Shown: positions 261 to 24,435, counted from the first letter of the stretch. The stretch: 64,000 bases of DNA from an uncultured bacterium (GCA_965371665.1 CBDUZI010000001.1:9411-73410); one strand, 5' to 3'. Numbers and translations: made by a program. Notes: generated by a model not told the origin, from the letters alone.

Positions 261-1571
261 CTATTTAGCCATTACTTTTTGTTTAGTCTTCCAAGCCTGT
301 TTAAGCACTTTTTCCGGATCAGACTTTCCGATTAAAATGGACTGCATGCCTTTTGAGATCACTTCCCGGACTTCATATTTTTCTTCCATTTTCAGGTCCG
401 GGGTAAGATTTCGCATGCCCTTGGCAAAATCCTTAAGCAAAGGATCAATCTCATCCATGGCTTGGAAATTCGCCGGTATCTGCTTGGATTCCTTGGCCAG
501 CCTGACTTGTTGCTCTTTGGACAAAAACCAGCGTAAAAAGGCTACTGCTTCCTCCGGATTTTCCGAATTGTTGGTCACCGCACAGCCTTTCCCCACCCCG
601 CCGATAAGGTACATGGGATGGGCCGCATCCTCCGGCTTGGGAAAAGGAAAAACACCCAATTCCAGTTCCGAATTCATCTCGAGATAGACATTTACCGCCC
701 AGGAACCATTCAACATCATGGCCGCCTTCTGATTGGCAAAATTGATTTCCGCGTCTTTGTTGGACATGGAAACCGCTCCGGGGTAGAGTATCTTTTTTTT
801 CTGCATATCCACCACGCGCTCGAGAACGCTTACACATCCCGGGTCAGTATAGGGCAAGGTTCCCGAGTATAACTTGCGCATTTTTTCTTCTCCCAGATAA
901 GTCCAGCAATAAGCATTAAAAAAGGTATAATCGATCCAAAGATCTCCGAAGCCCACCAGGAAGGGAGGAATGCCGGCACGGTTAAGCTGATCCCCGGCCT
1001 CCAGGAATTCGTCCCAGGTTGCCGGGGGTTTTTCGGGATCCAGACCGGCTTTTTTGAAAAGCTGCTTATTGTAATATATCTGAATATTCATTACGGAAAT
1101 CGGCACACCCCAGAAGGTATCGGGCTTAACCTCATAGGCATTGCCTTCCTCGTAATGAAACGCTTTTAAGGCCCGCGGAAAAAAGGTGTTACGCCAGGCA
1201 GAAGTATCCGCGTTCAATTTCCCGGTCATTTCATATATTCTTCCAGCCCGAATATAGCGGGCCAGAAGTTCTCCGCCTCCCGCCAAGCCAATGATATCCG
1301 GCAAGGTGTTGGCATTAGCCGAGGCTTGCAGCTTATTAAAGTAATCCGAACCGACCGGCGCCGAGAGTTCGAATGCCACCTTAACCCCGGTCTCTTCCTC
1401 ATATTCCTTGGCCATACTTTCAAACATGGATTGCTGATCCGCCCACCATTCCCAAAAAGTAATTTTTACCTCCCTCTTTTTCTCGGGGTGCTTCCCGCAC
1501 CCGAACAACAAGCCACCTACCATCAAACCGGTCAATGCCAATGTGAACAGTCTACTTCTTTGAAGCTTCAT
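261..1571 (-). CDS. sugar ABC transporter substrate-binding lipoprotein (extracellular solute-binding family 1)
   Basis: 436 aa with a signal peptide and an LLFGC lipobox-like motif. Overall similarity is to MalE-type sugar-binding proteins (reading the translation). The ATG at 1571-1569 overlaps the TGA of the upstream gene (ATGA). Confidence 0.85.
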   Translation of the reverse strand: MKLQRSRLFTLALTGLMVGGLLFGCGKHPEKKREVKITFWEWWADQQSMFESMAKEYEEETGVKVAFELSAPVGSDYFNKLQASANANTLPDIIGLAGGGELLARYIRAGRIYEMTGKLNADTSAWRNTFFPRALKAFHYEEGNAYEVKPDTFWGVPISVMNIQIYYNKQLFKKAGLDPEKPPATWDEFLEAGDQLNRAGIPPFLVGFGDLWIDYTFFNAYCWTYLGEEKMRKLYSGTLPYTDPGCVSVLERVVDMQKKKILYPGAVSMSNKDAEINFANQKAAMMLNGSWAVNVYLEMNSELELGVFPFPKPEDAAHPMYLIGGVGKGCAVTNNSENPEEAVAFLRWFLSKEQQVRLAKESKQIPANFQAMDEIDPLLKDFAKGMRNLTPDLKMEEKYEVREVISKGMQSILIGKSDPEKVLKQAWKTKQKVMAK

Positions 1572-4500
1572 TTAATTTCCTCCTTCCAATTATTATTGCC
1601 CACGATATAAAAAACGGTAAAATTCCGCTTTTCCCCAGGCTTTAGAGTGACTTCTTTGCCTAATAGTTCCATGGTATAAAAATTCGAGTCCTGCCAAACA
1701 CCGATTTGACCAATCTCCTCATGCTTGAATAATTGCATAAAATAATCTTTAGTAGCTTGGTTTAGCCCTACCACCCAACCCGCACGCGGTTCATAAGAAT
1801 CTTTATCGATTTTCGCAATAAATTTTTCAGTTACGAACTTGACTCTTTTCTTATTTTCAGGGTCAGAGATTGGCATAATCATCCTATGTTGCTCGTCCGC
1901 AAAATTATTTTTACCCGGAGCAAGATCAGGATGATTGAACCACTGATATTTCATGATGTCACCCGATAAGTTGGTAACTTGATAGTCTACCTGGAGGCGT
2001 CTTCCCTTAGCAGGTAGTATCATAGTTCTTTCGAGAAGGAGCCCCTTGCGGGTTTTAGTATACATTTTAACCGCTGCTTCATTCCCGTCATCAGTTACAA
2101 TCTCCGCCTCCCAATGATTATTCCAAACCACACCAGGCCAGCCCGATGGAAACCAGTCATTTATACCTCCGTATTCAATCCAGTCCCTATCACCTTTACG
2201 TTTCGCTATCTTAGGATAATTTTGATAAAGCATATTAGCACCGGTTTCGCGATGATAAAACGCCATTATTCTCCCGCCAATATCCTGAACGGCTTGAATT
2301 TCCACTTCGGCATTCGCTAAAATGACATCCTCGTCGCCACGCTTCATGATATCACCCATTAACACTTTAGCTTCCCCTTCAACCACAACTGGATATATTA
2401 ATTTAAATCGTTTTATTTCCTGGGGACATCTCAATTCAAAACCAAGGGTTTCTTTTCGAGCTTTCAAAGGCAATATGGAAAACTCCAACAGGACCTCCCC
2501 ACCTTTAGGAACGCTGAAGTTTAATTCTTGCGGTTCTACTTGCAAACCCTTTGAGGGGGTTAACATCACTGTTCCTTGGGTACTCATATTCCCACTAGCA
2601 ATCAGTCGAATAATACCTGTACTTTTCTTACCTTTCACCAGCACTCGTGGTCCTTCGCATGAAATAATTCGCCACACGGGCAAAACTTCAACTTTCTGAG
2701 GTTTAGACTTAAAAAAATTCTTCTTGACTCGAAAACTCGCAATAATGTCATAAGTTTTTTTCTTTTCAAGACTCGGTGGCAAAACAGAAAAAGTAAGTTT
2801 CTTTGTTTTCCCTGTATTTAGGTCCAACTTTTCTTCCTTTTTCCCTTTCCACGCTTTCGGCAGATTTAGCATCACCCTCCCTCTGACTTTTTCCGTGAAG
2901 TTATTCTTTACTTCCACTTCCAGTTTCGTCCATTTTCCCGCAGATACTGCTTGTTGGTCAGTCAGAATATCAACCTCAAAGGGCGAAATAACTTTAACAA
3001 TACCTTGGGATGAAACCGTTTTTACTTTTCTTCCCCGTGGAGTAATGAGTTCTCCTTTCAACCAGATAATATCTCCGGCTTCCGCGGTAGAAGGAATTTG
3101 AAAGGGGAAAACGGTTGAGATCACCTGGCCAGAAGCTAATTGGGGGATAGGACGCGTTTTCAACACGTGCTGAGGAGAAAGTGTGGCATAACCCGCCCGG
3201 GAATTAATCACAGGTTCGTTGCGTTTCACGAGCCATGCGGATAACGCTAAGCGAGCATTAGAAAGCACTTTCTGACTTAAATTCCTCGCTTCCAAACCAA
3301 TCTGAATCTCGGTATTAACTGTTGCACTTAACTTTGAAGCACGTACATTAATAAAATAATCCTGCTTATACTTTGCATTATATTCCATGACATATGTACT
3401 CGCTTCCGTAGCCGCCCCAACAGCATCCGGATAGAAGGAGATCGTCTGGGGTGTAGTTGCCACGAAGGTTATTGGTCTCCCCCCCTGCCGGACAGTAATG
3501 GCTTCATCGAATTTCCATTCCGCAGGACGCGGTAAGGTTAAGAGCGTTTTTTGATATTGCTGCAACTGGATAACCGTGATCCGGTTTTTTTCTCTTTCAA
3601 TGACGAGGTACTGGTCGCCGGTTAAATCAAATCCATAAAGACGGGAAAAGCGGCCGGCTAAAAAGGTCCCGGAATTATTTGTAGCTATAAAACCGTTTTT
3701 AGAAACTGTATGGTTTAATACCTCCAGTTCATGGACATTTGAAATATTCGCCAAAATACCCAGATCAGGATAGGCGGACCAGAAAATCCGGTTGGGCTCC
3801 GGCTGGGAATAATTCAGTAGTGGTTTGCCCACATATTTGGATACGACTCGTTTCTGTAATTGATCCGCCAGGGCAAACCATTTTTTTTGATTATGCCATC
3901 TAGAAACCCAGCGACCATTCAGCATATGGTAGCCATGGGCGAGATACCAGACTATTTTTTCATGACTCTCACAAAATACTTCATGGGCGAGGTCATGATG
4001 AAAAAAACAAACATGTTCGTGACCGAGATACTGCGCTATAGGAAAATATTCCCAGTTCCCTTCTCCGAAAAGGTTATTATAATCCACACTCTCCGGAACG
4101 GTAAAAGAAGCCAAGCCGCTGAAACCGCTCATCATGGGTATCAAGCGATCGTATCCCTGTTCAGTAAACAAAGGACCCAATTTCAGGTATGCTTCACAGT
4201 TTTCATACCAGGCTTGGCAATAACCGATCGGATTTTTTAATGTCGGATTTAAATCAAAATAAATAAAACGCGCACCAATCTGATCCAGGAATAATATATC
4301 GATACCATATTCTTTAAAAAATTTATTCGCAATATGATTCCCGGCTTTGACCACAGCGGGATGGCGAGGCGAAGCCGCCCAGCCTTTTCCGCCGGAAGGA
4401 TAGAATTCATATTTAAGATCATTCTTTAAATCCCGGCTCGCTATCTCTTCCGGACCACCTGCTCTTTCCAATGTCGGACTAATATTCCAGAAAGTCGGAT

Positions 4501-6784
4501 TGGTATAAGGCATAACCACCAGGTCATGCTTCTTGGCCAAAGCAATGCTTTTTTTAAAATCGGCATTCGTCCCAAAGGTCGGATCAACAGGCCAGAAGTC
4601 CGGCATATGCCGATCGAAGCCTTCCAACCACCAAGCTACAAAATGAACAATCGTCCCTTTGGGCAATTCTTTAAAATATTTATTAACATAACGAAAACTG
4701 CGATTCATATCCAAAGAAATTTTCAATAATACCCCTTGCCTAATTTTAGAAAATAAGGTTTTACCCAATTTATCAATCAAAAGCGGAGCCTTGGTCAGCT
4801 TATTGTCTTTTTTAAAACGTCGCAAAGCAGCCTCAACTTTTTCACCAAATACCATTCTCAACGGTTGGCCCTCCCAGCTGGTTTTCGGCTCAATATAGGT
4901 CGTCCAAACGTGTTCATAAACACCACGCCTGCCGCGAGCGTAACCAACATTAATTCGGGTCGATTCGATCGGCTTATCTGCCCAAAGCAGAAAAGAAGAA
5001 AATTGTCCCCCGTCAGTTAAAGACCAGTTGATAAAGTCTGAGAATAAAAAGGGATAAGTCGTTTTCCAACGCCGTTTATTCTTAAAAAATTGCTGATTAA
5101 ATGCTATTCCCATACGCCACGGTAAATAAAATCGTTCAAGTTTTCCATAATCAAAGCTCAACTTGGGCATTTCCACTCCAATAACCGTCTTATCCTCATG
5201 ATTTTGAAATTTGGCATACAAATCAAAGTAGTTATAGTTACTGAACACCAAATTGACAGCCATGACCGAAGAACCTCGTTGGGAGAGCAAACGAAGCGTA
5301 CGGCTACTCTCGATCCATCGATATGAAAATTTTGCTTCCTTATCTGCCAGAAACTCCTCGGAATTGAGAAAGGTTCCTTCTTTAAACATAATCCGCCAAA
5401 GGTAAGCATGTTCAAACCCTAATGAAACTCGGGAATTATTTATCCTATCTGTCAGAGATTCGAAAACCCCGGTTTTGCGGCTCAGAATCACCTGATAATA
5501 CTTATTTTGAATTGTAAGTTGATTTCCGGTTTCAGAAAATCCCGGGGGGCTACTCTCTTGGGAAACCGTTTGGGCCCTATGCTTCTCCCCAAAAACCTTT
5601 TGCAGGCCCCCTTGATCCAGAGATTTTTTTTGCTTTTTATAGGTAACCGGCAATGGTGCTTTAGTATAGGGTTGAGCGGCGATCAGAGACGGAAGCGGTT
5701 GAATTAACTGGGAGGGAACAAAGCCTGCCACCAATTTGATTTTTCTTTTCCCGATAAATTTGACCGAAGAAAACTCGATTTCGTGACCCCTATTAGGCTT
5801 TTTCTCATCCTCGGTTGTAACTCCTAATTTTAATATAAATGTCTGCGGACCTTTTAAATAATTAAACTTCCCAGCTAAATCATAAATATACCTCCCGGGT
5901 TTGGAAATGTACTCTAAGCGATGATACCCTCCGCGAAATTGAGGGCCACTAAAAATCACATACATATTGGCGGTTAAGCGACCAACCTTAATCTCTAATT
6001 TGGGATACTCCTCGAAATCGACTGTCAGCTCTTTGTTTACACAGCCATAGCACTGGTGCGGGTAATCGCCGATTAGCTTGATTTTTTCATCTTCGGTTTT
6101 TTGAAGATGAGCGCCTGAACTCCCGCCATTTTCAGCACGATTACTCCAACCTAAAACGCTGGTTTCCAAGGTGGCCTTTTCTAACGCCGCTTCCTCAGCT
6201 TCTGATAAACCCTTCTGGGCCACCACCTTTATCTTTTTTGCCCTGCTGGAGGATACCAATTTCAAACTGGAAAATGTAAAACTCAATCCTTTATTTGCAG
6301 GACGTTCGGAAGTGGCTATCCCTAATTCCAGACGTATTCTTCGGACCCCATTCAAGCCGGTTGCTTTTCGAATATTGTAAGCTCTTTTCCCGACCGCCTT
6401 GGTTCCTTTTTCGGGCTTAATATAATCATTTTTACTAAAACCATCCTCGATATTAGGATTTTGAATCACTAAATACCAAGCCGCATTACAAGCCGTAACT
6501 TCAATTTCCAAAATAGGATATTTATCCAGGTCCCATTCAATATTCTGATAAACCATACCGTAAAAGAGGCTCGTGGAGGTGCCGATCACCCGGGCCTGGT
6601 TTTCAAAGAGCTTAATCTTAGCGCCGGTTGGGGTGTCGTCAGGCCAGGCCACACGCCAACGTTCCAGCGATTTATGCTTGGCATCGAATAAAACATGAGC
6701 CTTAACCTTGGCCTCCACGTGATTAACCCCCCAGGCAGCGAATATAAAGGCAGTAAATATTATTCCACATAAAAAATTTTTCAT
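1568..6784 (-). CDS. large secreted multidomain protein (1738 aa) with two N-terminal beta-sandwich domains, a central TIM-barrel glycoside-hydrolase-like domain, and a C-terminal beta-rich domain
   Basis: The signal peptide is MKNFLCGIIFTAFIFAAWGVNHVEA. The N-terminal repeats carry the AAWYLVIQNP and DFEEYPKLEIKVGRL motifs also found in the giant protein and the 9612 gene. The central HFVAWWLEGFDRHMPDFWP...DILFLDQIGA region (roughly 3600-4650) looks like a TIM-barrel glycoside-hydrolase-like domain. The 4-nt overlap with the binding-protein gene implies cotranscription. Confidence 0.75.
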   Translation of the reverse strand: MKNFLCGIIFTAFIFAAWGVNHVEAKVKAHVLFDAKHKSLERWRVAWPDDTPTGAKIKLFENQARVIGTSTSLFYGMVYQNIEWDLDKYPILEIEVTACNAAWYLVIQNPNIEDGFSKNDYIKPEKGTKAVGKRAYNIRKATGLNGVRRIRLELGIATSERPANKGLSFTFSSLKLVSSSRAKKIKVVAQKGLSEAEEAALEKATLETSVLGWSNRAENGGSSGAHLQKTEDEKIKLIGDYPHQCYGCVNKELTVDFEEYPKLEIKVGRLTANMYVIFSGPQFRGGYHRLEYISKPGRYIYDLAGKFNYLKGPQTFILKLGVTTEDEKKPNRGHEIEFSSVKFIGKRKIKLVAGFVPSQLIQPLPSLIAAQPYTKAPLPVTYKKQKKSLDQGGLQKVFGEKHRAQTVSQESSPPGFSETGNQLTIQNKYYQVILSRKTGVFESLTDRINNSRVSLGFEHAYLWRIMFKEGTFLNSEEFLADKEAKFSYRWIESSRTLRLLSQRGSSVMAVNLVFSNYNYFDLYAKFQNHEDKTVIGVEMPKLSFDYGKLERFYLPWRMGIAFNQQFFKNKRRWKTTYPFLFSDFINWSLTDGGQFSSFLLWADKPIESTRINVGYARGRRGVYEHVWTTYIEPKTSWEGQPLRMVFGEKVEAALRRFKKDNKLTKAPLLIDKLGKTLFSKIRQGVLLKISLDMNRSFRYVNKYFKELPKGTIVHFVAWWLEGFDRHMPDFWPVDPTFGTNADFKKSIALAKKHDLVVMPYTNPTFWNISPTLERAGGPEEIASRDLKNDLKYEFYPSGGKGWAASPRHPAVVKAGNHIANKFFKEYGIDILFLDQIGARFIYFDLNPTLKNPIGYCQAWYENCEAYLKLGPLFTEQGYDRLIPMMSGFSGLASFTVPESVDYNNLFGEGNWEYFPIAQYLGHEHVCFFHHDLAHEVFCESHEKIVWYLAHGYHMLNGRWVSRWHNQKKWFALADQLQKRVVSKYVGKPLLNYSQPEPNRIFWSAYPDLGILANISNVHELEVLNHTVSKNGFIATNNSGTFLAGRFSRLYGFDLTGDQYLVIEREKNRITVIQLQQYQKTLLTLPRPAEWKFDEAITVRQGGRPITFVATTPQTISFYPDAVGAATEASTYVMEYNAKYKQDYFINVRASKLSATVNTEIQIGLEARNLSQKVLSNARLALSAWLVKRNEPVINSRAGYATLSPQHVLKTRPIPQLASGQVISTVFPFQIPSTAEAGDIIWLKGELITPRGRKVKTVSSQGIVKVISPFEVDILTDQQAVSAGKWTKLEVEVKNNFTEKVRGRVMLNLPKAWKGKKEEKLDLNTGKTKKLTFSVLPPSLEKKKTYDIIASFRVKKNFFKSKPQKVEVLPVWRIISCEGPRVLVKGKKSTGIIRLIASGNMSTQGTVMLTPSKGLQVEPQELNFSVPKGGEVLLEFSILPLKARKETLGFELRCPQEIKRFKLIYPVVVEGEAKVLMGDIMKRGDEDVILANAEVEIQAVQDIGGRIMAFYHRETGANMLYQNYPKIAKRKGDRDWIEYGGINDWFPSGWPGVVWNNHWEAEIVTDDGNEAAVKMYTKTRKGLLLERTMILPAKGRRLQVDYQVTNLSGDIMKYQWFNHPDLAPGKNNFADEQHRMIMPISDPENKKRVKFVTEKFIAKIDKDSYEPRAGWVVGLNQATKDYFMQLFKHEEIGQIGVWQDSNFYTMELLGKEVTLKPGEKRNFTVFYIVGNNNWKEEIK

Positions 6785-7042
6785 TAAGCATAACCCTCCT
6801 AATTCGACTCTGCAATCAGCCTTTTACAGCCTCGGCTCTTCGTCTTATACTACCCACCCCAAACCGAAAGCAAAAACTGCTTTTTAGACACAGAAGCTCG
6901 AAGATTAAATCCCAAATCCGAAGCACCAAATCCGAAACAAATCCAAATTTCAAACTTCAAAATTCAAATAAAAAACAAGAAAAATCTTTGACCGGCTTTA
7001 CAGGATATACAAGATTTTATAAAAAATCATGTTCATCCTGTC

Positions 7043-7112
7043 AAAAAAATCACTATTTTCCTGCCACAAGCGGTTAATTACGTTTATCTGCGTCCATCGG
7101 CGGTTGTTAATT
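7043..7112 (-). promoter_or_regulatory. conserved upstream element A (copy 1): tcactattttcctgccacaagcggttaatta-N-ATCTGCGtccATCGGCGGttgttaa
   Basis: A 70-bp block about 270-340 nt upstream of the 1568..6784 start. Near-identical blocks occur at 18592-18670 and 22485-22552, and the core recurs at 16765 and 20541. It contains a direct repeat of the CATC(G/T)GCG half-site at about 10-bp spacing. Confidence 0.45.
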
Positions 7113-7175
7113 TCTTGGTCATTCGAATTTCGATATTCGAATTTAATTACAATCTCTCTATGCCTCTGTGGCCCT

Positions 7176-8129
7176 CTAATATACCAAACCCACCGTAAAG
7201 AATTGAGTACCTCCAAAGCTGTCTGAGCTCCAAGTGGTAACCCGATAGGCATAGTCCAAACGAAAAGTGCACACCCCTATTGCTGTCCGAACACCGACGC
7301 CAAAGGTCATGCCTTCTGTCCCATCCGGGGCCAGGGCATACCCCAGGCGGGCCGCAAAAACACCGGCATAAAAAAATTCGCCTCCCATATGCAAGCTGGT
7401 TTCGGATTCCAGAGTCTGTTCAATATCCAGCGCCACAAAAAATTTTTCCAGTAAGCCTGACAACAAATCATATTTTGCGGAAAGAACAATACGCAGGGGC
7501 AGTGGATCCGCCTCATCGATGAATTTCAGGGGCAGGCCGAGATTTTTTACCGCCAGGCCGACCAGAGCCTCGGGCGCGGCTTCCCAGAGAACGCCGATGT
7601 CCGCCGCAAGGGTATTCGCGGAATATTCTCCCAGCGTGGAATTGAGAAACTTCAAGTTCAACCCGCAGGAGAAACCATCCAAAAATTTTGAGACCGGCCG
7701 GCCCAGGGAGATGATACCCAAAATATCTCTAACCTCAACGGACGACTGGCTGGTGCCGGCATCATTTAAAGACGGCATCCCGTGGTAGACAAAGGTAACT
7801 CCCAGTACTCCGAGGTGTGAGAACGGCATGGCAAAATTCAAGATCTCGGAATAGTCTTCCGCAATTCCGGTCTGATGCGTAAAAAGCCCGCTCACCCTCT
7901 GGACGGATTGCAAACCCGCCGGATTGTAAAATATAATCCCTGGATCGCCTGTTAGGGTACCACCAGCCCCACCCAAGGCACTGGCCCGGGCTGTGTTAGC
8001 CGTCACCAGCAACAGTCCTCCAGATGTATCGGCCGCATCGGCCTGCACCGCCAGGCAGATAACCGACATGCCGGCCACCACCAGACCAGTCGTTAGCATC
8101 AACATTTGAGAAATTCTTTTTGGGCTCAT
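7176..8129 (-). CDS. FadL/PorV-like outer-membrane beta-barrel protein
   Basis: The likely true start is MSPKRISQMLMLTTGLVVAGMSVICLAVQA (signal peptide); the ORF track extends it to 8234. The motif TLTGDPGIIFYNPAGL resembles the N-terminal FadL/OMPP1 hallmark (..ADDA...NPAxL). The protein ends in an aromatic residue (..TVGLVY). Its start ATG overlaps the TGA of the 8126..9601 gene. Confidence 0.65.
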   Translation of the reverse strand: MSPKRISQMLMLTTGLVVAGMSVICLAVQADAADTSGGLLLVTANTARASALGGAGGTLTGDPGIIFYNPAGLQSVQRVSGLFTHQTGIAEDYSEILNFAMPFSHLGVLGVTFVYHGMPSLNDAGTSQSSVEVRDILGIISLGRPVSKFLDGFSCGLNLKFLNSTLGEYSANTLAADIGVLWEAAPEALVGLAVKNLGLPLKFIDEADPLPLRIVLSAKYDLLSGLLEKFFVALDIEQTLESETSLHMGGEFFYAGVFAARLGYALAPDGTEGMTFGVGVRTAIGVCTFRLDYAYRVTTWSSDSFGGTQFFTVGLVY

Positions 8130-9601
8130 TTTACTACCGCTACCCGAATATTCTTCTGGAATCGATTGCTTTCGAGCCTGATGATATAGACACCGCTGGC
8201 GACCCAGTCGCCGTTGGCATTCTTGCCATCCCACCGCACCTGGTCATCCACGGCTCCGGAAGCCGGGCCGTCGACTAAGGTACGTATTTTGCGGCCGGCT
8301 AAATTGTAAACCGTGATCCTCACCCGGCTGGCGTCTTCCGCACCGTAATGAATGGTTAATGACCCTTGCTTGGGCCGGAAGATGTTGGCAGAAGGCCGGA
8401 GTTCATTCACACCAACGATGGGCGTAGGGGTAGCGGTTGGCGGTTGGCTGGTTATCTCCAAGCAGTCGAATCCGAGCTTATCGCCATCGGCACTGCCGAT
8501 CCAGATAACAACGCGGAAAGTCTTTATCCCCGACCAACCGGTCGCAGAGGCATAATCGTAAACCAGAACCCCGGGCTGGGTAAGATTCGGAGACAAGGCG
8601 TGATAGTCTGTGCCATCATAAACATTGAGTAATTGGATTGTGGCCTGCGCGCTGCCTTCAGGCTCCACGGAATCCACCGTGGCAATGAAATACGGAAAGG
8701 CCGTTACATCCGTGGTAATAGGAGCGCTTTCCATCTTGTGCTCGCCCGTACCGGTAAAGGTCACCCAGCCGATGCCGGCTTGCGCATCCAGTTGCACGTT
8801 CGTCAACGTCCAATCGCTGGGAGGATCAAAATCCTCCACCCAGCCATTATTGACTCCAGTCGGTGTCGATGTTGGAGTATAAGATGTTGGAGTATAAGTA
8901 GCACTGTTTGTCGAAGTAGGTGTTATAGTTGGCGTATCTGTCATAGTCCAATCCGGAGTCTGAGTGGATGTGGGGCTCTTGGTTGGGCTGTCCGTAGGTG
9001 AACAGACCATAGTTTCCGTGGGAGTGGGTGATACTGTCGGCGTTGCGGTGGGGGTATAATCCACGTCATAAATGCGGACCGAATCAAAAGTAGCATAACA
9101 CCACTGCGGGCCGTACACTTTAAGCACAAAATAATAGAGCTGCGTTCCACTTTCTCCAGTAACCGAAGAAATATTATAGGAATAGGTGCCGGGTACGGTG
9201 GGAGTGCCAAACACAAAATATTCCCAGGTGGGCTTCTGCAGGGCTATTTCCACCTTGGTCGTACCCGCCTGGATGTCGCTGATGACGACCTCCATCCTGT
9301 TATATGTGCTTAAATCCACTGATTTAGTAATCGATGTGACATATCCGGCTCCGTCCATGCCGGTGACGGTAATATCTGCGTAACTGTCGCTCTGGCTATA
9401 AACCATCTCTGCCGGATTCGGCCCGCCGCCCCGGTCCGTGACATCGAACCAGCTTCCGGGCTTTTCTCCGGGCGTGCCGCCGGTAAAATCATCCATCCAG
9501 AGATTTGTTGCCTGGACCAAAGCAGCTGCACTCAGGCAAAGCCACCCGGCAGCCAGCCCTATCCGGCTGACCCGCAAAAAAGTACGTCCCCCTCTATGCA
9601 T
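8126..9601 (-). CDS. secreted protein with two beta domains, a Thr/Pro-rich linker and a C-terminal FlgD-Ig-like / T9SS-type sorting domain
   Basis: Signal peptide LAAGWLCLSAAALVQA. A TPTATPTVSPTPTET... low-complexity linker. The C-terminus VYNLAGRKIRTLVDG...GVYIIRLESNRFQKNIRVAVVK is typical of FlgD-like and Por-secretion C-terminal domains. Confidence 0.7.
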   Translation of the reverse strand: MHRGGRTFLRVSRIGLAAGWLCLSAAALVQATNLWMDDFTGGTPGEKPGSWFDVTDRGGGPNPAEMVYSQSDSYADITVTGMDGAGYVTSITKSVDLSTYNRMEVVISDIQAGTTKVEIALQKPTWEYFVFGTPTVPGTYSYNISSVTGESGTQLYYFVLKVYGPQWCYATFDSVRIYDVDYTPTATPTVSPTPTETMVCSPTDSPTKSPTSTQTPDWTMTDTPTITPTSTNSATYTPTSYTPTSTPTGVNNGWVEDFDPPSDWTLTNVQLDAQAGIGWVTFTGTGEHKMESAPITTDVTAFPYFIATVDSVEPEGSAQATIQLLNVYDGTDYHALSPNLTQPGVLVYDYASATGWSGIKTFRVVIWIGSADGDKLGFDCLEITSQPPTATPTPIVGVNELRPSANIFRPKQGSLTIHYGAEDASRVRITVYNLAGRKIRTLVDGPASGAVDDQVRWDGKNANGDWVASGVYIIRLESNRFQKNIRVAVVK

Positions 9602-9611
9602 ACGCCATCCC

Positions 9612-12600
9612 CTAGAAAGTTACGGTTACCTGGGCCCAGACAGCGTTCTGACCCCAGTTTTTTTCATTTTCAAAAGGAAAATAAACTTTGTTCATTTCGC
9701 CATGCAGCCGTATGTAACCCCCGGCTAAATCCCGCAGCAGACCCACGGCCAGTTTGTCGCGTATCTCCTCCGCTTGTCCGTGTTTAGACATGCAGGAAAT
9801 TTCGCGACCGAAATCTAAGGAAAATTTATATTCATTGAAAAACAGCACCGAGTTTTGCAGGTAAAGCCCGTGGAAGATAGGTACATCCCAGTTCTCGTCC
9901 GGTTCATACCCCTGCGGCAAATAATAGGTATTGTGAATCGGGGCACTCGCATTGGCCTGCCTCCCGCCGAACCGACCGATATAGACTGGCTGCATGGCAA
10001 AGACCTCTTCCAGCAGATAATGCTTATAGCGGATATCCACCGTAGCTAAGTTGCCGTAATACCTCCTGCGTTCTCTATCCAGCTCCTGGTCCAGCCGGAA
10101 GCGATCCAAGAGAGTCATTTTCAATCCAAAGGGAGCATTGTATATAACTTTCAGCTCAGGAGTCACGGTTAAATTGTCGGTGTAATCCAAGGTGAGCGGG
10201 ATTTCCTCGTCATTGGCTGTGTAAAGGGCGTACTGATCCGAGATATCGTCTCGGATTCTCGCCCCATAAGCGCCGACTTCAAACACCCAATCGTCAATAT
10301 CTGTATTCTTATACTTTAGGGTCAAGGATACGGATTGGTTTCTGCCAGGCTTGGAAAGCCGTTTGATATAATGTCCGTCCAAGCGTATTTCCATATTAGA
10401 AGCATAAGTACCTTCCAACACCTGGCGAGGAATAATCGCCGAAAAGGAATATCCTCTTTGATCGCGACGATAAGGATAATCCGGCTCGTGGTCGTTTTCC
10501 CGGCTGTCAAGGATACCGTTGTGATTCAAATCCTCGCTTTCGTGGAAAAGGTAATCCTGCGGAATGTACAGACCGTTGACGTATTCCTGACTAGGCTGGC
10601 CCAGATTGTAAAAATCACCGAAAATGACCCCGTTTTTTTCCGTATCCCAGTCCGGAAGAAGCGCACAACTGTCATTATCCTCCACCACGTCATAATTCAG
10701 CAGCTTGGTGGAATAATCCTTAGACAAGTTGAAATAACTAGCCTTTAAAAGCGCACCCTCGATCCCGCGGGAAAGGGTAACGAAATAGGCATTGGCCATA
10801 CGGTTCACGCGGTCGCCAGTATAAGCTTGATTGTGCGCGATGGAAACTGCGTATTCGGCTGCCAGGTTGATGCCTAAAAGCTGGCCGCGTAAATCCGCTC
10901 CGAGTATGGAGCACGCCTGCGTACCTTCGTCCCTAAAGGTCCCGCTTTTCAGCCTCTCCAGCTGGTCTGCCGTAAGGGTATAGTCAACATCCACTACAGG
11001 CTCATGCGTTGTAAATGTGCTGTAACTTTCAATTAGCCGCCAGTTTTCGCCGTCCGAAGAAATACTGAAATCGATAGTGCCATCATCGGGGATATGCCAA
11101 CAGCTAAGCTCCAGGTGTCCGGAAACGGCTTGTATCTGGGAAGGTAGCACGCGTCCTCCGCTGTTGGCGCCTGTGGTTAGAACCAAGGGAACTCTTAAGA
11201 CCAGGTAACCGCCCTCATTGATACCCCGGGCGGCATTGTTCGGGTCGGTGTCGATCAGGTCTATGTAGGTGTTACTTTGGTCGGAGACGTATGCTATACT
11301 ACTGTCATCAACATCCGGGCTGAAATCCGGTGATATTGGATTTCCGGCAGAATTGGCGATGGTCATGTAATTAGTGTCTTCTGTCTTGAAATAAAGATTG
11401 GATTCATTGGGATGGGTGGTGTTGGTGGTATGATTCTCGATTTTAACGTAAACCGAAGGTACGAAATTTTGATAAACCTCGGGCGGCTCGTCTGGGCCCA
11501 TGAACAGGTTAGTATCCATCTCGCCGTTGCTTTTGGATAAATTGACGGCCGAAAGACCAAGCTGCACCGTGCCGATCCGGATGGAGAAATTCTTGGCCGC
11601 ACGCAGGCCGGTCATGAAAACGTTGGTTTTATTATAATCGCTACTGGAGGATGACAGCCGGGTTCCAAACAGCTTGAAACATATGTCCCCAAGCTTCGGC
11701 TGCCAGAGAATGCCTCGAAAAGTAGAGGCTTTCTTAAAAGTCAGGTCCGTGAACAGTGGTTCGTAAACCGTACCGAGCTGGGCCATATTTCCGATGTATA
11801 AATCCTGATATCTCAACAAGCCATAGTCGAGCTGGGGAGTAAGATAGCGGCCAGCTGGTTCTTCCCAGCGGACGTTATTTTTCTCGTTGATTATGTCGTA
11901 GCCCAAAGAGGCCCAGATATCGACATTTTCAAAAGGGTGAATATAGGAAATTAAATAAAATTTTTGCGTAATTTCATTGAACCCGATATCCTTCAAAGGG
12001 ATACCCCAGCGGTTCAGTCCGGTCCAGTCCTCGTTTTTGGCCACGCCGTCCAGCCACATAGCACGATAGGTTTGATAGGCTACGCCAGAAATTTTGAGAA
12101 TATCCGCATCTTTGGCAGGTGCAATGGCCTCGGGTTTCACTCCCGGGATTGGTAGCATAATCCCCTGGGCTGTCGCCATCTTGCTGGAGAAGCCGATGGC
12201 ATTTAAGGCAACTTGAGTGCCAGCGCCTTCCAGAAAAAACTCAATAAAAAAAGTCTGCTCAGTTTTCCAGCCTGTGAGATCAGGCACATTGGCCATATAG
12301 ACGCCGGCTCGGGAGAAGCGGGGAGTAATTATACGAAAATTATCCGGATTGCGGGCATGAATCAAATGCACCCTTACTTTTCCACGTTCTAATTCACGTC
12401 CCAATTCGATCTCCAAATAGGGATACTTGGAAAAATCCACGGTCAAAGGTTTTTTCGGAGACAAAAATCTGCCATATGTCACCTTTTCTTTTAATTTCAG
12501 CAGGATTTCCCCACCCTTTTGAACCTTTGCAATGGTATTCAAGCCCTTTTCAATTGAATTATCACGCCAGCCATTCAAACCTTTTGCCCAATTCTCAAAA

Positions 12601-13226
12601 TACTTATAAGATTTTGATTTATCTCCTCTAAAATCCTTTTTAACTTTTCGAGCCCCTTTGGCCAATAGACTTTTAGCGACTTTGGATTTTTCAGACTTTG
12701 CCAAACTCTGCGCAGGCTTATTGACCAGTGCCAGACCTTCCCCGATTCGCAACTGGGAAACCTTTGCCTCAGCACCAGAGCCTCCCAACCAGAGGGTGAC
12801 CCAGAAATCTTTAATTTCTTTCCACGGCGTTGATTTCATGATGCTCACGCTGTAGATTCCGGGTTGGGTAATTCCATTCAAAATCTTATACCCGGCATAA
12901 GGCCGATGCGCGTCCATAAGCTCCACGTCCATCGAGCCGTCCTCACTTATCTCATCTATAATAATCTGAAGAACCAAGCCAGAGGTAATATTCATGGCAA
13001 TGGCTTTTTCAGGAGTCATAACCTTACCATACTCGAAGCTGCCCGGCACAGAGATCAAGGCCTGTTTCTCATGCCTCTCCAGCAGCGCATGGAAGTCGGG
13101 ATTGGTCCGGTTATCCCGCCAACCCTTAAACTCGGCTTGGTAAAAATCCTGTACCGCCAACGAGGGAATAACCGATATCACTAAGGCTAGCAGCAGAAAA
13201 CATGTGCCGAAACGAAACTGCTTCAT
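9612..13226 (-). CDS. large outer-membrane protein (1204 aa) with two N-terminal 'F-x-G/D-W-R-D-N' beta-sandwich domains plus a large C-terminal beta-barrel
   Basis: Signal peptide MKQFRFGTCFLLLALVISVIPSLA. Repeats DFYQAEFKGWRDNRTNPDF and YFENWAKGLNGWRDNSIEKG, with DFSKYPYLEIELGRE. The long C-terminal region has alternating hydrophobic beta-strand character and a terminal Phe (..AQVTVTF), typical of outer-membrane barrels. Confidence 0.7.
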   Translation of the reverse strand: MKQFRFGTCFLLLALVISVIPSLAVQDFYQAEFKGWRDNRTNPDFHALLERHEKQALISVPGSFEYGKVMTPEKAIAMNITSGLVLQIIIDEISEDGSMDVELMDAHRPYAGYKILNGITQPGIYSVSIMKSTPWKEIKDFWVTLWLGGSGAEAKVSQLRIGEGLALVNKPAQSLAKSEKSKVAKSLLAKGARKVKKDFRGDKSKSYKYFENWAKGLNGWRDNSIEKGLNTIAKVQKGGEILLKLKEKVTYGRFLSPKKPLTVDFSKYPYLEIELGRELERGKVRVHLIHARNPDNFRIITPRFSRAGVYMANVPDLTGWKTEQTFFIEFFLEGAGTQVALNAIGFSSKMATAQGIMLPIPGVKPEAIAPAKDADILKISGVAYQTYRAMWLDGVAKNEDWTGLNRWGIPLKDIGFNEITQKFYLISYIHPFENVDIWASLGYDIINEKNNVRWEEPAGRYLTPQLDYGLLRYQDLYIGNMAQLGTVYEPLFTDLTFKKASTFRGILWQPKLGDICFKLFGTRLSSSSSDYNKTNVFMTGLRAAKNFSIRIGTVQLGLSAVNLSKSNGEMDTNLFMGPDEPPEVYQNFVPSVYVKIENHTTNTTHPNESNLYFKTEDTNYMTIANSAGNPISPDFSPDVDDSSIAYVSDQSNTYIDLIDTDPNNAARGINEGGYLVLRVPLVLTTGANSGGRVLPSQIQAVSGHLELSCWHIPDDGTIDFSISSDGENWRLIESYSTFTTHEPVVDVDYTLTADQLERLKSGTFRDEGTQACSILGADLRGQLLGINLAAEYAVSIAHNQAYTGDRVNRMANAYFVTLSRGIEGALLKASYFNLSKDYSTKLLNYDVVEDNDSCALLPDWDTEKNGVIFGDFYNLGQPSQEYVNGLYIPQDYLFHESEDLNHNGILDSRENDHEPDYPYRRDQRGYSFSAIIPRQVLEGTYASNMEIRLDGHYIKRLSKPGRNQSVSLTLKYKNTDIDDWVFEVGAYGARIRDDISDQYALYTANDEEIPLTLDYTDNLTVTPELKVIYNAPFGLKMTLLDRFRLDQELDRERRRYYGNLATVDIRYKHYLLEEVFAMQPVYIGRFGGRQANASAPIHNTYYLPQGYEPDENWDVPIFHGLYLQNSVLFFNEYKFSLDFGREISCMSKHGQAEEIRDKLAVGLLRDLAGGYIRLHGEMNKVYFPFENEKNWGQNAVWAQVTVTF

Positions 13227-13272
13227 CTCTCCCCTCCTGATATGAGTGGTTATTTAAGGCTGAAATATAAGA

Positions 13273-14313
13273 TTAATTTCGGATGTGAATATATTTGATG
13301 CCCGCCCCGGCCTCGGTCTCCGGAGCTCCGGTAGTTCCCATCCAAATTTGAATCCAAAAAACTTTAGCGCCTCTCCATTTGGTCTTTTCGTTAATATTTA
13401 CCGTATATACCCCAGGGCGGGTAACAAAAGGCATGAGAGTGTAGTTAGTGTAAGGTGCCTGCGCAAGCATAAGTTCAACTTTTACTTTGCTCGTCCCCAT
13501 ATCCCCAAAAGCAATCTCAAATTTTGTGGAAGGGGTAATCTTGGCTTTAATCCCGCTTGAATCTGACATCAACTTACAATATTTTCTGCCAGGAATTATT
13601 TTTAGCCGCGGAACATCTCCTTCAAAATTCAACTCACTCCCGAATTCCGGGTCGGTTTCAGCCGTTCTCCACCCCCCAACTCCATTCCTGAAATCTTCAA
13701 AAAAGATACTGTTTGGGGGCATAGGCGCAAACTTTTTCAAGGTAAACGCTTTTATGGCCGCCAGCTTTCTTTGTTTTTCTAAAATATTAGCATCCTGAAA
13801 AAAAACCTCCTTGATAATCACACTTTTTTTTTCACCTTCCAGCCAGACCTTGATCCACATGCTGGTAACACCCTTCCAGCCTGTCAACTCATGAACATTT
13901 GCTTTATATTCTCCTGATTTTCCTTGAAGTTTGGCAACCCGATAGGAATTATAAGGTTCATAAGCATGCATTAAATAAACCGTTGCTATTGTGTCCGGAG
14001 CAATTCGGTCAACCTTGATGACAATCTCGGTTTTCCGGGTAATATTAATGGTAATCGGGTCGGCTTTTGACATCGCTTTACCGTAGGCCACGTTAGGGGT
14101 CGAAATCTTTAGTCTTCTTCCCTGTACCTGTACCTGCGTATTAAAACCAAGATCAGTAGAATTATCCCGCCAATTTTTAAAGTCTTCCTGATAGACAATC
14201 CCTAACCCTTCATTATCATTACTTTTTTTTGCGAATGAAGTCCGAAGAAGTAAGAAGGAAAAAAGCATCACTATAATAATAGTCGGACAAAAAAACATTT
14301 TTGAAGGGTGCAT
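13273..14313 (-). CDS. secreted protein with two tandem copies of the F-x-D/N-W-R-D beta-sandwich domain
   Basis: The likely start is MHPSKMFFCPTIIIVMLFSFLLLRTSFA; the ORF track starts 12 codons earlier. Domains begin YQEDFKNWRDNSTDLGF and FFEDFRNGVGGWRTAETDPEF and end ..W(K/R)G..(V/I)W(I/M)..W(L/M)(E/G). Confidence 0.7.
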   Translation of the reverse strand: MHPSKMFFCPTIIIVMLFSFLLLRTSFAKKSNDNEGLGIVYQEDFKNWRDNSTDLGFNTQVQVQGRRLKISTPNVAYGKAMSKADPITINITRKTEIVIKVDRIAPDTIATVYLMHAYEPYNSYRVAKLQGKSGEYKANVHELTGWKGVTSMWIKVWLEGEKKSVIIKEVFFQDANILEKQRKLAAIKAFTLKKFAPMPPNSIFFEDFRNGVGGWRTAETDPEFGSELNFEGDVPRLKIIPGRKYCKLMSDSSGIKAKITPSTKFEIAFGDMGTSKVKVELMLAQAPYTNYTLMPFVTRPGVYTVNINEKTKWRGAKVFWIQIWMGTTGAPETEAGAGIKYIHIRN

Positions 14314-14441
14314 ACAAATTTCCTTTCTCAAAACTAAATTTGGAGACAAACCGACTATTAGGGAGTTGTCCCGAATGGTACTAACTTAAGAGTTTTATTT
14401 GGCATTATCACTAATTTACGTAATTAAATTTAAAATCACAA

Positions 14442-14540
14442 TGTCATTCCCGAATGTATTTATCGGGAATCCAGGTGTAATGCTAAATAAAGAATATTAT
14501 TATACCTCTGGTTCCCCGATTAAAGCATTCGGGTATGACA
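14442..14540. repeat. inverted repeat TGTCATTCCCGAATG ... CATTCGGGTATGACA flanking ~70 nt (hairpin or MITE-like)
   Basis: Seen directly. An internal ttatcgggaat also pairs with attcccgaat. The arms begin GTCATTCC, like the inverted repeat at 143-230. Confidence 0.4.
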
Positions 14541-14629
14541 ACCCTTTCAGAAAACACTCTTTCCGCAACAGAAACTAACTAAATATTTATTTGTTACTTC
14601 TTGTTATAGGGGGTTGCTTGTGATCAAAT

Positions 14630-14689
14630 AACCGCGTAAAGAAAATACTCTTGTTTCCGAGAAATTCTTCTTTTTCCCGGAAACAAGAG
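14630..14689 (-). terminator. Rho-independent terminator of the 14706..15329 gene
   Basis: The sense strand reads CTCTTGTTTCCGGG-(14-nt loop)-CTCGGAAACAAGAG followed by TATTTTCTTT, just 3' of the stop at 14706. Confidence 0.55.
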
Positions 14690-14705
14690 AAATATTTTTC
14701 ATCTA

Positions 14706-15329
14706 TTATTTTTTTACTTTTTCAGCGCTTTTTACTTTTACCTTACTTTTTACTTTGTCACTTTTCTTCTTTATTCTACTTTTCTTCTTAATTTTACTTT
14801 TTCTTCCTTTTTCCTTTGCGACTATTTTTTTGCCATCTGTAATGCATACATCCGATATCTTCGCAACGGGATTTTCCTCCCCGCCTATCCAGATTTCTAT
14901 CCAAAAAGTATGTTCCTCCTGCCCCGGCCATGGCGTCTTTTCAGCCAGCTTCGCGGTATAAACTCCTTTGTCACTTGCTTCGGCAATGAGTTTATGGGAA
15001 TCATAAGGGTCACCAGCTGTCATAAGTTTAACTGTAATGGAGCCTTGGGAAATATCATCAAGCAATTTCAGGGAAAGCTCTGTGTTTTCTTCGATATTAA
15101 TTGTAATTCCAGCTTCAGATGACATAACCTTTCCAATTTTTTTCTCAGGAATAGCAGTTATAATCCCGATTTCATTCTTCTCATCCAATTCAAACTTGGC
15201 CTTAAATCCTGGATTGGTACTCTCATCGCGCCAATCGGAGAAATCATCCTTATACAAATTTTTTCCCTGCACAGAAGCAACGATACCCAGAGCGAATACA
15301 GCCGTTAAAAATACTTTTAAAAATTTCAT
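14706..15329 (-). CDS. small secreted protein with one F-x-D-W-R-D beta-sandwich domain and a lysine-rich C-terminal tail
   Basis: Signal peptide MKFLKVFLTAVFALGIVASVQG. Domain YKDDFSDWRDESTNPGF...TFWIEIWIGGEENP. Tail KEKGRKSKIKKKSRIKKKSDKVKSKVKVKSAEKVKK. Confidence 0.7.
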   Translation of the reverse strand: MKFLKVFLTAVFALGIVASVQGKNLYKDDFSDWRDESTNPGFKAKFELDEKNEIGIITAIPEKKIGKVMSSEAGITINIEENTELSLKLLDDISQGSITVKLMTAGDPYDSHKLIAEASDKGVYTAKLAEKTPWPGQEEHTFWIEIWIGGEENPVAKISDVCITDGKKIVAKEKGRKSKIKKKSRIKKKSDKVKSKVKVKSAEKVKK

Positions 15330-15613
15330 TTTCTTCCCTCCCCATCAAAAATTTTAAACTTACTTTTTTTGGGGTAACTGAAAACCCCTAAAAATGGACG
15401 CTTATAATAAAATAAGTTATTTCACTTTAAAAGTCAAATAAATTATCCATCCCGCCTAAAAAATTCCCTCCTTTCTTTATGATTTTCATCGAGATATGTG
15501 GGTTCTTTCCTTAAATATTAGTTAAGACCTCGGCAAGAGCAAAAATATTACATAACTAATGTGAGTTACTTAAACAAAATATAGCATATTTCCGAAATAT
15601 ACTGCGCTCCGGG

Positions 15614-16618
15614 TTACTCGCCGGCTGGACCGATCTTGATCTCATCATAACGTGTGCCGGTAGCCGGGCCGGCCGTGCCTTGCTCTACTATCAGCTCAAT
15701 TATAAATTCCTTGCTGCCTTCCCAGCCTGTGATACTTTTAATGTCATAATTATAGATGCCGGGTCCAAAATACTGGCTAATCAAAATACTATCCTGGCCG
15801 GTCTCTTTCAGAAAAATCTTGTTGCCTGTACCAGAATCAACTCCGGTCACCACCACTCGCATATTATTATTCCCATCCACATCCAATGTTATGGTATCCG
15901 AGTATACAATGCCCCAGACATCGCCGGCCCCAAAGGTTACCTTGGCGGAATCATCTCCATTTGTGAGGATTTGCCCATTATGGCCAGTGTACCATCCCCC
16001 GGGCTGGCCGGGGTCTTCTTCATAATGCTCGACATAGCCATCAGAACCGGAGTTATAAATCCAGATCTCATCGTAACGCGTGCCGCCCGAATTTGGACCA
16101 CCTGTTCCTTTTTCCGCCACCAACTCGATAAGAATTTCCTTGGTGCCGGTCCACGGTATACTAAAATTGTAAATCCCCGCCCCAAAATATTCGGCAATTG
16201 TAACCTTTTCCTCGGTTACGACATTTTTTAGAATTATTTTGTTGTTGGTGTCAGAATCCACATCAGTTACCACCATGCGCATACTGTTATTTTCATTTAG
16301 ATCGATTTCAAAAGGGTCGCAGTACACAACACCCCAAACATCGCTTGCACTGTAAATGGCCTTGGCCGAACCGGTTCCGTTAGTCGTTATCTGGCCATTA
16401 TAGCCTGGGTTCCATCCCCCGGGTTGGCTGGTAGTGGTTTCCTCAAAATGCTCTAAATAGGGATCAGCTACATCCCCTGCCATTTTCACGGTGAGAGTAT
16501 AATTTAGCGCTTCGGCTGCAAATATCTGGCTGCTGCAGAAGAACAACAATGTCAAGCCTAAAGAGGCTGCGCGCATATCCTGCCAATAATTTCTCTGCCG
16601 GCAGCTAATTGTTTTCAT
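15614..16618 (-). CDS. secreted protein consisting of two tandem ~150-aa repeats (PGGW..GxNGQIxTNG..DVWG(V/I)VY...MR(M/V)VVT(D/G)VDS..NKI(I/F)LK)
   Basis: The internal duplication is visible in both protein and DNA. The preferred start is MKTISCRQRNYW at 16618, with AGGGGGAAAGAG 6 nt upstream; the ORF track starts at 16672. Confidence 0.65.
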   Translation of the reverse strand: MKTISCRQRNYWQDMRAASLGLTLLFFCSSQIFAAEALNYTLTVKMAGDVADPYLEHFEETTTSQPGGWNPGYNGQITTNGTGSAKAIYSASDVWGVVYCDPFEIDLNENNSMRMVVTDVDSDTNNKIILKNVVTEEKVTIAEYFGAGIYNFSIPWTGTKEILIELVAEKGTGGPNSGGTRYDEIWIYNSGSDGYVEHYEEDPGQPGGWYTGHNGQILTNGDDSAKVTFGAGDVWGIVYSDTITLDVDGNNNMRVVVTGVDSGTGNKIFLKETGQDSILISQYFGPGIYNYDIKSITGWEGSKEFIIELIVEQGTAGPATGTRYDEIKIGPAGE

Positions 16619-16658
16619 ACTCTTTCCCCCTGCTTTATAAAAAACCGGAACCAAACTT

Positions 16659-16700
16659 AACCGCAGATGCACGCCGATTAAGAATCTTTTTTAAATCCCC
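16659..16700 (-). promoter_or_regulatory. conserved upstream element B (copy 1): GCAGATGCACGCCGATTAA(..)AATCTTTTTT
   Basis: This is the same half-site pair as element A in the opposite orientation. Similar blocks are at 20491-20540 and 22436-22480. It is followed by C7 and C6 homopolymer tracts (16697-16713). Confidence 0.4.
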
Positions 16701-16764: not shown

Positions 16765-16792
16765 ATTTATCTGCGTTCATCGGCGGTTAAAG
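16765..16792 (-). promoter_or_regulatory. element A core (atttATCTGCGttcATCGGCGGttaaag)
   Basis: Identical core to 7081-7105, 18641-18666 and 22528-22550. It lies about 150 nt upstream of the 15614..16618 start and overlaps the stop of the 16787..18565 gene. Confidence 0.35.
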
Positions 16793-18565: not shown

Positions 18566-18591
18566 CCCGGTCCAGCCGGAACCAAAAATGC

Positions 18592-18670: not shown

Positions 18671-18675
18671 CCACA

Positions 18676-19626: not shown

Positions 19627-19719
19627 AAACCCCCTCTACTTAGACAGGATTAACAGGATTTTTTAAGGCATTTTTTTTATTCATTACCATCCGCTTTATC
19701 CTGTCTAAATTGCCTTTTA

Positions 19720-20478: not shown

Positions 20479-20490
20479 AAAAAGCCTTTT

Positions 20491-24344: not shown

Positions 24345-24435
24345 CCTTTCATACTTAATTCGCCGTTTACCTTAGGTTTGCATTCTTGCAGCCTGTAAAG
24401 AAGTTTATATTTATTCCGCTCCAGATAATTTTTTT

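Follow-up and report, generated by a model that had tools for sequence, protein, structure and literature searches.

A carbohydrate-binding-module-like domain family in a conserved operon of secreted proteins from an uncultured FCPU426-like bacterium

A stretch of 64,000 nucleotides from an uncultured bacterium (GCA_965371665.1 CBDUZI010000001.1:9411-73410; hereafter the window, with positions counted from its first letter) encodes a group of secreted proteins built around a recurrent domain. A profile search of the whole window finds 11 strong copies of this domain in six minus-strand genes, called B, D, E, F, G and H here, and four weaker copies, of a type that we call WYLVI, in a giant protein. 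With high confidence, we regard the domain as a genuine, uncatalogued family with the fold of carbohydrate-binding modules (CBMs). On balance, we also consider it somewhat probable that it serves as the glycan-binding unit of an operon for polysaccharide capture, uptake and degradation. All relevant genes lie on the minus strand; the six genes, their parts and one associated hairpin are as follows.

B, 1568..6784, minus strand: 1738 aa; signal peptide, two WYLVI-type copies at 6269-6694 and 5759-6184
B glycosidase-like core, residues ~400-1100 = 3485-5587, minus strand: includes DUF6259; further beta-rich domains after it
D, 8126..9601, minus strand: 491 aa; signal peptide, copies at 9068-9499 and 8450-8872, Pro/Thr-rich linkers between
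D C-terminal FlgD_ig / type IX secretion system (T9SS) type-A sorting domain, about 8129-8374, minus strand: Pfam, NCBIfam
E, 9612..13226, minus strand: 1204 aa; signal peptide, two copies at 12741-13154 and 12186-12605
E barrel, about 9615-12185, minus strand: ~860-aa C-terminal outer-membrane beta-barrel, ending in ...AQVTVTF
F, 13273..14313, minus strand: 346 aa from the publicly called ATG; the open reading frame (ORF) reaches 14349 (358 aa); signal peptide
F domain copies, 13795-14193 and 13279-13704, minus strand: phmmer, A2 profile
Hairpin after G, 14648..14689, minus strand: 17-bp stem then T-run, directly after the G stop codon; a consensus match only
G, 14706..15329, minus strand: 207 aa; signal peptide, one copy at residues 24-164 = 14838-15260
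G Lys-rich basic tail, residues 166-207 = 14709-14834, minus strand: basic in 6/6 orthologues
H, 15614..16618, minus strand: 334 aa as called publicly; the ORF reaches 16672 (352 aa); signal peptide
H domain copies, 16055-16459 and 15629-16036, minus strand: phmmer iteration, A2 profile

With the domain of G (residues 23-165 of G_207) as a single query against 16 window proteins, phmmer recovered two copies in F_358 (independent E-values, i-E, of 2e-21 and 7e-19), two in E_1204 (2e-23 and 7e-10) and one in D_491 (5e-05). Iteration within the window added the two copies of H, the first copy of D and the two copies of B, and then those of the giant protein. Because iteration in a database of 16 proteins can drift, the test was repeated with A2, a profile of 56 sequences made from external homologues, in which the only window copies are those of G, the first of E and the second of H, and none comes from the giant protein. 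The envelopes obtained with A2 were 24-164 in G (i-E 3e-37), 53-185 and 216-357 in F (6e-28 and 3e-25), 25-162 and 208-347 in E (6e-34 and 1e-22), 35-178 and 244-384 in D (6e-28 and 1e-21), 72-206 and 213-348 in H (2e-18 and 5e-32) and 31-172 and 201-342 in B (2e-19 and 4e-17). The giant protein gave 466-592, 615-733 and 749-878 (9e-12, 2e-12 and 4e-10), together with a weaker fourth copy at 10826-10946 (2.3e-05), and a six-frame scan of the window with the domain profile revealed no copies beyond these. The paralogous copies share a mutual identity of only 14-35%, the two copies of H being 57% identical to one another. Two motif types can be told apart, W-R-D and WYLVI, and these are linked by an hhalign comparison of their profiles (52 and 13 sequences, respectively; probability 99.4%, E 4e-21). 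The similarity among the copies is far beyond chance, and the domain repeat is real.

An earlier note on this DNA, written from the sequence alone, had proposed such a secreted domain, and a domain of ~130-140 aa in secreted proteins is indeed genuine. The positions and motifs given there are correct by phmmer and by the A2 profile. The note had counted seven copies in four or five genes: those copies stand, and the total rises to 11 strong copies spread over six genes, D_491 (8126-9601) and H_352 (15614-16672) having been overlooked. Nor are the member genes all contiguous, as had been thought, a PorV-like gene (C) being located between D and B. The resemblance pointed out between the motifs AAWYLVIQNP and DFEEYPKLEIKVGRL of B and the AVDEAWYLVIRSP repeats of the giant protein is real according to the same hhalign comparison, and the homology of the domain to the WYLVI domains of that protein is borne out by both A2 and hhalign.

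All six proteins have signal-peptide-like hydrophobic N-termini, as read directly from their sequences. No Pfam-A or NCBIfam family lies over the domain at E<=0.01 in B, D, E, F, G or H, and a scan of 56 diverse domain sequences at E<=1 yielded no family common to more than one member. Searches of PDB sequences with profiles A1 and A2 gave no match at a meaningful E-value and no CBM, the sole profile match being a non-significant one to the surface glycan-binding protein BtSGBP-B (E 0.28). As had been suspected, the family is thus new to Pfam-A, NCBIfam and the PDB sequences. The fold was approached with an AlphaFold2 model of the G copy, based on the 11-copy alignment, which is all-beta with about 10 strands and has a mean predicted local distance difference test score (pLDDT) of 90.9 and a predicted template-modelling score (pTM) of 0.87. 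Its structural neighbours include CBM16, 22, 30, 11, 4, 15 and 27, and Foldseek matches are dominated by CBM27, 4, 28, 16, 17 and 61 and by BtSGBP-B from Bacteroides. The beta-sandwich predicted in the earlier note agrees with this model and its neighbours of CBM-type jelly-roll, a fold that the domain shares with established CBMs. According to the model, the domain therefore is a new sequence family of ~135 residues within a well-known fold class, the type B beta-jelly-roll of CBMs. Its signature reads GW(R)D...FNA...(Y/W)GKV.S...D(V/L)..(Y)P.LE(V/I).V...pG.Y...TGW.G...F.i.l..eG.

Two of the proteins join the domain to a carbohydrate-active polypeptide: the giant protein, in which three copies follow a glycoside hydrolase (GH) domain of family GH5, and B, in which two copies precede a core that models as a GH129/GH36-like glycosidase. 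No catalytic domain was found in D, E, F, G or H in the Pfam and NCBIfam scans, and searches of PDB sequences with whole B and whole E returned no match. The features of the giant protein are listed here.

Giant ORF, 25663-63852, minus strand: at least 12,729 aa
Giant GH5 'Cellulase' domain, residues 170-407 = 62632-63345, minus strand: Pfam, 29.1 bits versus a cut-off of 23.5
Giant WYLVI copies (residues 466-878), 62077-62457, 61654-62010 and 61219-61608, minus strand: A2 profile
Giant fourth copy, residues 10826-10946 = 31015..31377, minus strand: A2 profile

The three WYLVI copies follow the GH5 domain directly. A blastp comparison of residues 130-460 with residues 10300-10830 (E 3e-11) matches over ~100 residues only, in the N-terminal part of the GH5 region; ~340 residues beyond this GH5-start-like stretch (about residues 10383-10478) comes the fourth copy. 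The Pfam scan of the giant protein covered its first 1000 residues and residues 10,101-11,000. A metagenome scan with its GH5 and WYLVI region gave no match. The protein is a mosaic in which long regions lack annotation and hydrophobic, transmembrane-like stretches are numerous. Beyond the TTG listed as its start (63852), the frame stays open up to 63999 (stop-to-stop 25666-63999, 12,778 codons), and the gene may start beyond the end of the window (64000) and encode more than 12,729 aa.

From the fold and these associations, we infer that the domain binds a sugar or polysaccharide, and a glycan, as already suggested in the earlier note, is the most plausible class of ligand. Type-B CBMs such as CBM84 of the Paenibacillus nanensis GH9 xanthanase (xanthan-binding, PDB 6fhn), CBM29, CBM86, CBM4, CBM16, CBM22 and CBM27 have the same size (about 130-140 aa), and share with the domain both tandem occurrence and placement after GH-like catalytic domains, as seen here in the giant protein and B. 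Unlike them, many members of the family stand alone or are fused to an outer-membrane barrel instead of an enzyme, and the family carries its own signature, with an identity of 7-18% and no Pfam CBM or PDB chain profile match.

Outside the window, an exhaustive hidden Markov model (HMM) search of 1.84 billion representatives (50% clustering) retrieved 428 proteins at E<=1e-3, 58 of them at E<=1e-30, while word-indexed searches with A1 and A2 found only 3-4 close orthologues of G, and such a search for the B core found none. A protein identical to G (P0001) occurs on other metagenome contigs. The publicly named members are all 'hypothetical protein', and come from metagenome-assembled genomes (MAGs) labelled FCPU426, Elusimicrobiota or 'bacterium'; with 428 representatives, including FCPU426- and Elusimicrobiota-labelled proteins, the family is not restricted to one lineage as had been assumed. 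A re-scan of the best 153 members gave 421 copies, usually in tandem pairs, with a maximum of 11 in one protein of 4789 aa. The 37 long members have as partner domains a T9SS sorting tail (7/37), F5/8 type C (4/37) and SLH (2/37), as well as PA14, Laminin_G_3, the GxGYxYP putative glycosidase, DUF6259, SlpA_C, PKD and Fn3. The gene contexts, from which the short contigs L013 and L014 were left out, are frequently those of sugar utilisation. A member with six copies and no other domain (P0006) lies between two GH99 genes and a GH130 gene, with an SSF transporter and AraC regulators nearby; another (P0028) adjoins GH130, SSF, LacI and a sugar ABC system; and an Elusimicrobiota member (P0032) adjoins GH99/GH71, GH3, GH65 and a solute-binding protein with two permeases. 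Yet another (P0013) has a T9SS tail with a PorV gene next door, which is the same pairing as that of D and C in the window, and some members are found in loci with N_methyl (prepilin-type) and PEP-CTERM genes.

A genome scan with a narrower alignment (A4) brought up relatives of the operon itself. The order G-F-E(SlpA_C)-D(FlgD_ig)-PorV-like, permease, permease, B(DUF6259) is found in four other contigs: L006 is labelled 'candidate division FCPU426 bacterium', L005 belongs to an uncultured bin, and the other two are L015 and L016. Orthologues share 45-65% identity. G, F and E have as many domain copies there as in the window, and the D-like proteins have 2-3; the pairing of D-like and PorV-like genes also occurs in L010, besides these four contigs. 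In each of the four relatives, the gene directly upstream of the G-like one encodes TonB (L005 5403-7839, L006 6910-9500, L015 1-430, L016 1-2204), ExbB is encoded upstream in L005, L006 and L016, and ExbD is called in L016. In L005 and L006, a TPR/YfiO-like protein and an OmpA protein resembling I of the window also precede the operon. The third match of the A4 scan, L007 (Acidobacteriota), was set aside, no family member being found there by HMM. Given the low identity among paralogues and the conserved orthologues and gene order, the duplications must be old and the array represents a conserved operon. The family is therefore old and has not recently expanded around the giant gene, which argues against the lineage-specific expansion next to that gene put forward earlier. 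The remaining genes of the operon in the window, with its presumed importer, are these.

A, 261..1571, minus strand: sugar-type ABC solute-binding protein; SBP_bac_1 E 1.9e-38; lipobox-like LLFGC in the N-terminus
C, 7176..8129, minus strand: PorV/PorQ-family outer-membrane barrel; no domain copy; likely start ATG at 8129
N and O, 23496..25338, minus strand: two ABC sugar-type permeases (BPD_transp_1), beside the giant gene

Protein D passes the curated cut-offs for its sorting domain (FlgD_ig 30.1 bits versus 27; TIGR04183 27.4 bits versus 23), and C passes that of the PorV family (NF033709 PorV_fam, 117.5 bits versus 90), being well under the equivalog cut-offs for PorV (37 versus 250) and PorQ (69 versus 220). 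The coordinates show ATGA overlaps of the D stop with the C start and of the B stop with the A start, which suggest translational coupling in both pairs. D and C thus resemble a T9SS cargo with its PorV/PorQ partner in that they have a type-A C-terminal domain and a PorV/PorQ-family barrel, both over cut-offs, and overlapping genes; they differ in that C stays under the equivalog cut-offs and that no core T9SS genes (SprA, PorK/L/M/N, PorU) were seen among the genes of the 64-kb window. The barrel of E matches SlpA_C at 27.2 bits, under the cut-off of 35, and its orthologues reach an E-value of 5.6e-11, with precomputed Pfam matches of E<=1e-5 in the orthologues of L015 and L016. The barrels E and C both end in C-terminal aromatic residues, and that of E is kept in 5/5 orthologues.

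We propose that these proteins would work together as follows. D would display two copies of the domain outside the cell, its T9SS-type C-terminal domain fastening it to C, the co-translated PorV-like barrel, and E would form a large SlpA-like outer-membrane barrel, a channel or anchor, that bears two binder copies N-terminally. F and H, with two copies each, and G, with one, would be small secreted binders, soluble or loosely attached, and G may be tethered to an anionic surface or polymer by its conserved polybasic tail. B would hold the substrate with its two copies while its putative GH129/GH36-like alpha-glycosidase core trims the glycan, and the trimmed products would enter the cell through the sugar ABC importer formed by A, N and O. 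In the giant protein, the domain would be used in the classical manner, as modules appended after GH5-like catalytic domains.

Several observations weigh against this proposal. At the level of the domain, CBM_6 is matched by 1/56 members only (E 0.033) and no other CBM family profile is matched, and the identity to any CBM is only 7-18%. The model of the B core, built on a 9-sequence alignment, is of moderate confidence (pLDDT 74), so that catalysis is putative. The usual even-stranded topology of barrels would place both N-terminal copies of E in the periplasm, which fits an envelope tether as well as import, and beyond Sec no export signal can be recognised in F, G or H. The gene order of the window also departs from that of the relatives: the permeases N and O are displaced from the operon and lie beside the giant gene, while the relatives keep them between C and B, and the TonB and ExbB genes of the relatives are missing from the window, where H, an added gene, takes that position.

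A bolder version of the proposal, which we consider rather unlikely, is that G, F, E, D and C, together with the TonB/ExbB(D) seen in the relatives only, constitute a new outer-membrane machine for glycan capture and import in FCPU426/Elusimicrobiota-like bacteria. An SlpA-type barrel fused to CBM-like modules, along with PorV-anchored and small soluble binders, would then do the job of SusC/SusD with unrelated parts, and the same domain family would also have been recruited into a giant multi-enzyme membrane protein. It is the adjacency of the genes that hints at such a SusCD-like import machine, and the E-type barrel may be energised by TonB, though without a recognisable plug domain. The Sus-like polysaccharide utilisation loci of Bacteroidota, of which BtSGBP-B (PDB 7kwb/7kwc) is a part, similarly encode an importer and a glycosidase alongside an outer-membrane barrel and secreted or surface binders of glycans; TonB/ExbB adjoin the operon in the relatives, and BtSGBP-B is a structural neighbour of the domain. 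In contrast to these loci, the barrel is SlpA_C-like, an ABC system would carry out uptake across the inner membrane, and the host is FCPU426-like and not a member of Bacteroidota; nor was a SusC-type TonB-dependent transporter or a SusD detected, none of the window proteins matching Plug, TonB_dep_Rec or SusD.

The domain might instead bind a polymer of the cell's own envelope, be it peptidoglycan, a secondary cell-wall polymer or lipopolysaccharide. E would then be a connector of the SlpA/OmpM kind in which two domain copies replace SLH, D, F, G and H would be accessory layer or tether proteins, and the polybasic tail of G would stick to anionic envelope components; we judge this scenario to be unlikely, if by no means negligible. 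It draws on the match of the E-family barrel to SlpA_C, the likely periplasmic N-terminus of E, the co-occurrence of SLH with the domain in 2/37 homologues, and the neighbouring genes, which encode the OmpA-domain protein I and PorV-like barrels and, in the relatives, TonB/ExbB and a TPR/YfiO-like protein. E resembles SlpA/OmpM connectors in its very large C-terminal SlpA_C-similar barrel (27.2 versus the Pfam cut-off of 35) and N-terminal ligand-binding region, yet differs from them by the absence of a long coiled coil and of an SLH domain, for which there was no match in E, its N-terminus consisting of the two copies of the new domain. The conserved basic tail of G fits as well: the Lys-rich tail described earlier is real and basic in all six orthologues of G that were examined. 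The terminator-like hairpin of G, moreover, would suit the gene of an abundant structural protein. A Lys-rich linker as a general companion of the domain was considered and rejected, the linker of E being basic here and acidic or Ala/Pro-rich in its orthologues, such that only the tail of G is consistently basic; this lack of conservation among orthologues speaks against an envelope tether. So do the genes for a glycosidase-like enzyme and a sugar ABC importer to which the operon is physically joined in 4/4 relatives, the location of unrelated members in GH99/GH130/GH65 sugar loci under LacI/AraC regulators, and the position of the giant-protein copies after GH5-like domains.

The earlier note had named a glycan of prey surfaces as an example of a ligand shared with the giant gene. 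On this reading, the domains would be adhesins that recognise a glycan on the surface of prey or host cells and would have expanded with the giant gene around a shared ligand, in a predatory or epibiotic lifestyle. The giant protein indeed has four related copies and GH5-like domains and is encoded ~9 kb from the domain array, and CBM-like modules can mediate adhesion. Giant proteins with many transmembrane segments and SecA-like domains have been linked to predatory Omnitrophota (preprint 10.1101/2023.11.21.568195). An Omnitrophota origin, as the giant gene might suggest, was rejected, since the nearest genome is an FCPU426 MAG. The paralogues are moreover ancient (14-35% identity) and belong to a conserved operon with no recent expansion, no giant gene is found within the ~10 kb flank on each side of the orthologous operons, and the other contexts of the family are ordinary sugar-utilisation loci. 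With a glycosidase-like enzyme and a sugar ABC importer in the operon itself, we found no support for a prey-surface glycan and regard prey adhesion as improbable. It is just as improbable that the domain is an interaction or self-assembly module of a surface complex with no carbohydrate ligand, akin to the jelly-rolls of MAM or ephrin receptors, for while the usual tandem pairs, the joint encoding of several paralogues like subunits of a complex and the MAM/Eph structural neighbours would suit it, CBMs make up the best structural neighbours and the bulk of the match list, and the domain is repeatedly fused to or beside glycoside-hydrolase(-like) domains and sugar transporters.

The glycan-binding reading, which we prefer, would add to the CBM repertoire an uncatalogued family of 428 clusters at 50% identity and open a first way into the function of an envelope operon that is conserved in candidate phylum FCPU426 and its relatives, groups for which we know of no cultured representatives. 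The operon is so far undescribed, whereas its fold and general logic are unsurprising to a specialist. The reading also raises hypotheses for DUF6259 proteins, as GH129/GH36-like glycosidases, and for SlpA_C-type barrels without SLH, and explains a part of the giant protein as a GH5 domain followed by CBM-like cassettes. A profile based on A2 could annotate such proteins in metagenomes.

The genes of the window are transcribed in the order giant ORF, O, N, a 1.2-kb gap, M, L, K, J, I, H, G, F, E, D, C, B, A. Within this order, the terminator-like hairpin after G suggests that G may be a separate transcription unit. Upstream of G there are promoter-like hexamers at 15404-15437 (minus strand), and the intergenic regions on both sides of the gene are AT-rich. 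The DNA thus hints at separate, possibly strong, transcription of G. The giant gene and the permeases are separated from the other genes by an AT-rich stretch of 1.2 kb between M and N (22317-23495; GC about 0.38), with no ORF above 90 aa and no Rfam or tRNA match. It coincides with the site where gene order departs from that of the relatives, and so may be a regulatory region or a rearrangement junction. No tRNA genes were found in the whole window, and no Rfam RNA in positions 1-26000. At the other end of the operon, just downstream of the A stop codon, lies a nearly perfect palindrome of ~88 nt (143-230; TTTGTCATTCCGAGCGAAGCGAGGAATCTCT ... AGAGATTCCTCG..TCGCTTCGCT..CTCGGAATGACAAA), which looks like a repetitive extragenic palindromic (REP)-like element or a terminator hairpin; the ORF listed at 109-687 on the plus strand is probably a mere artefact of the palindrome.

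Upstream of H, the genes M to I encode further proteins.

I, 16787..18565, minus strand: PorV/UPF0164-like barrel, coiled-coil region, OmpA peptidoglycan-binding domain

L has an Fn3-like domain and a weak match to WxL-interacting protein, and J has a T9SS-like C-terminal tail. A scan with protein I found one distant locus only (L017). Counterparts of the window set 16787-22316, M (221 aa), L, K, J and the I barrel, occur in unchanged order in a MAG of Elusimicrobiota (L012 1534-6713), with blastp E-values of 7e-09 for M, 4e-22 for L, 2e-10 for J and 5e-39 for I, K being without a blastp match. There, the set adjoins GH99/GH3/GH65 genes and a family member with four domain copies, and M-L-K-J-I may represent another surface assembly.

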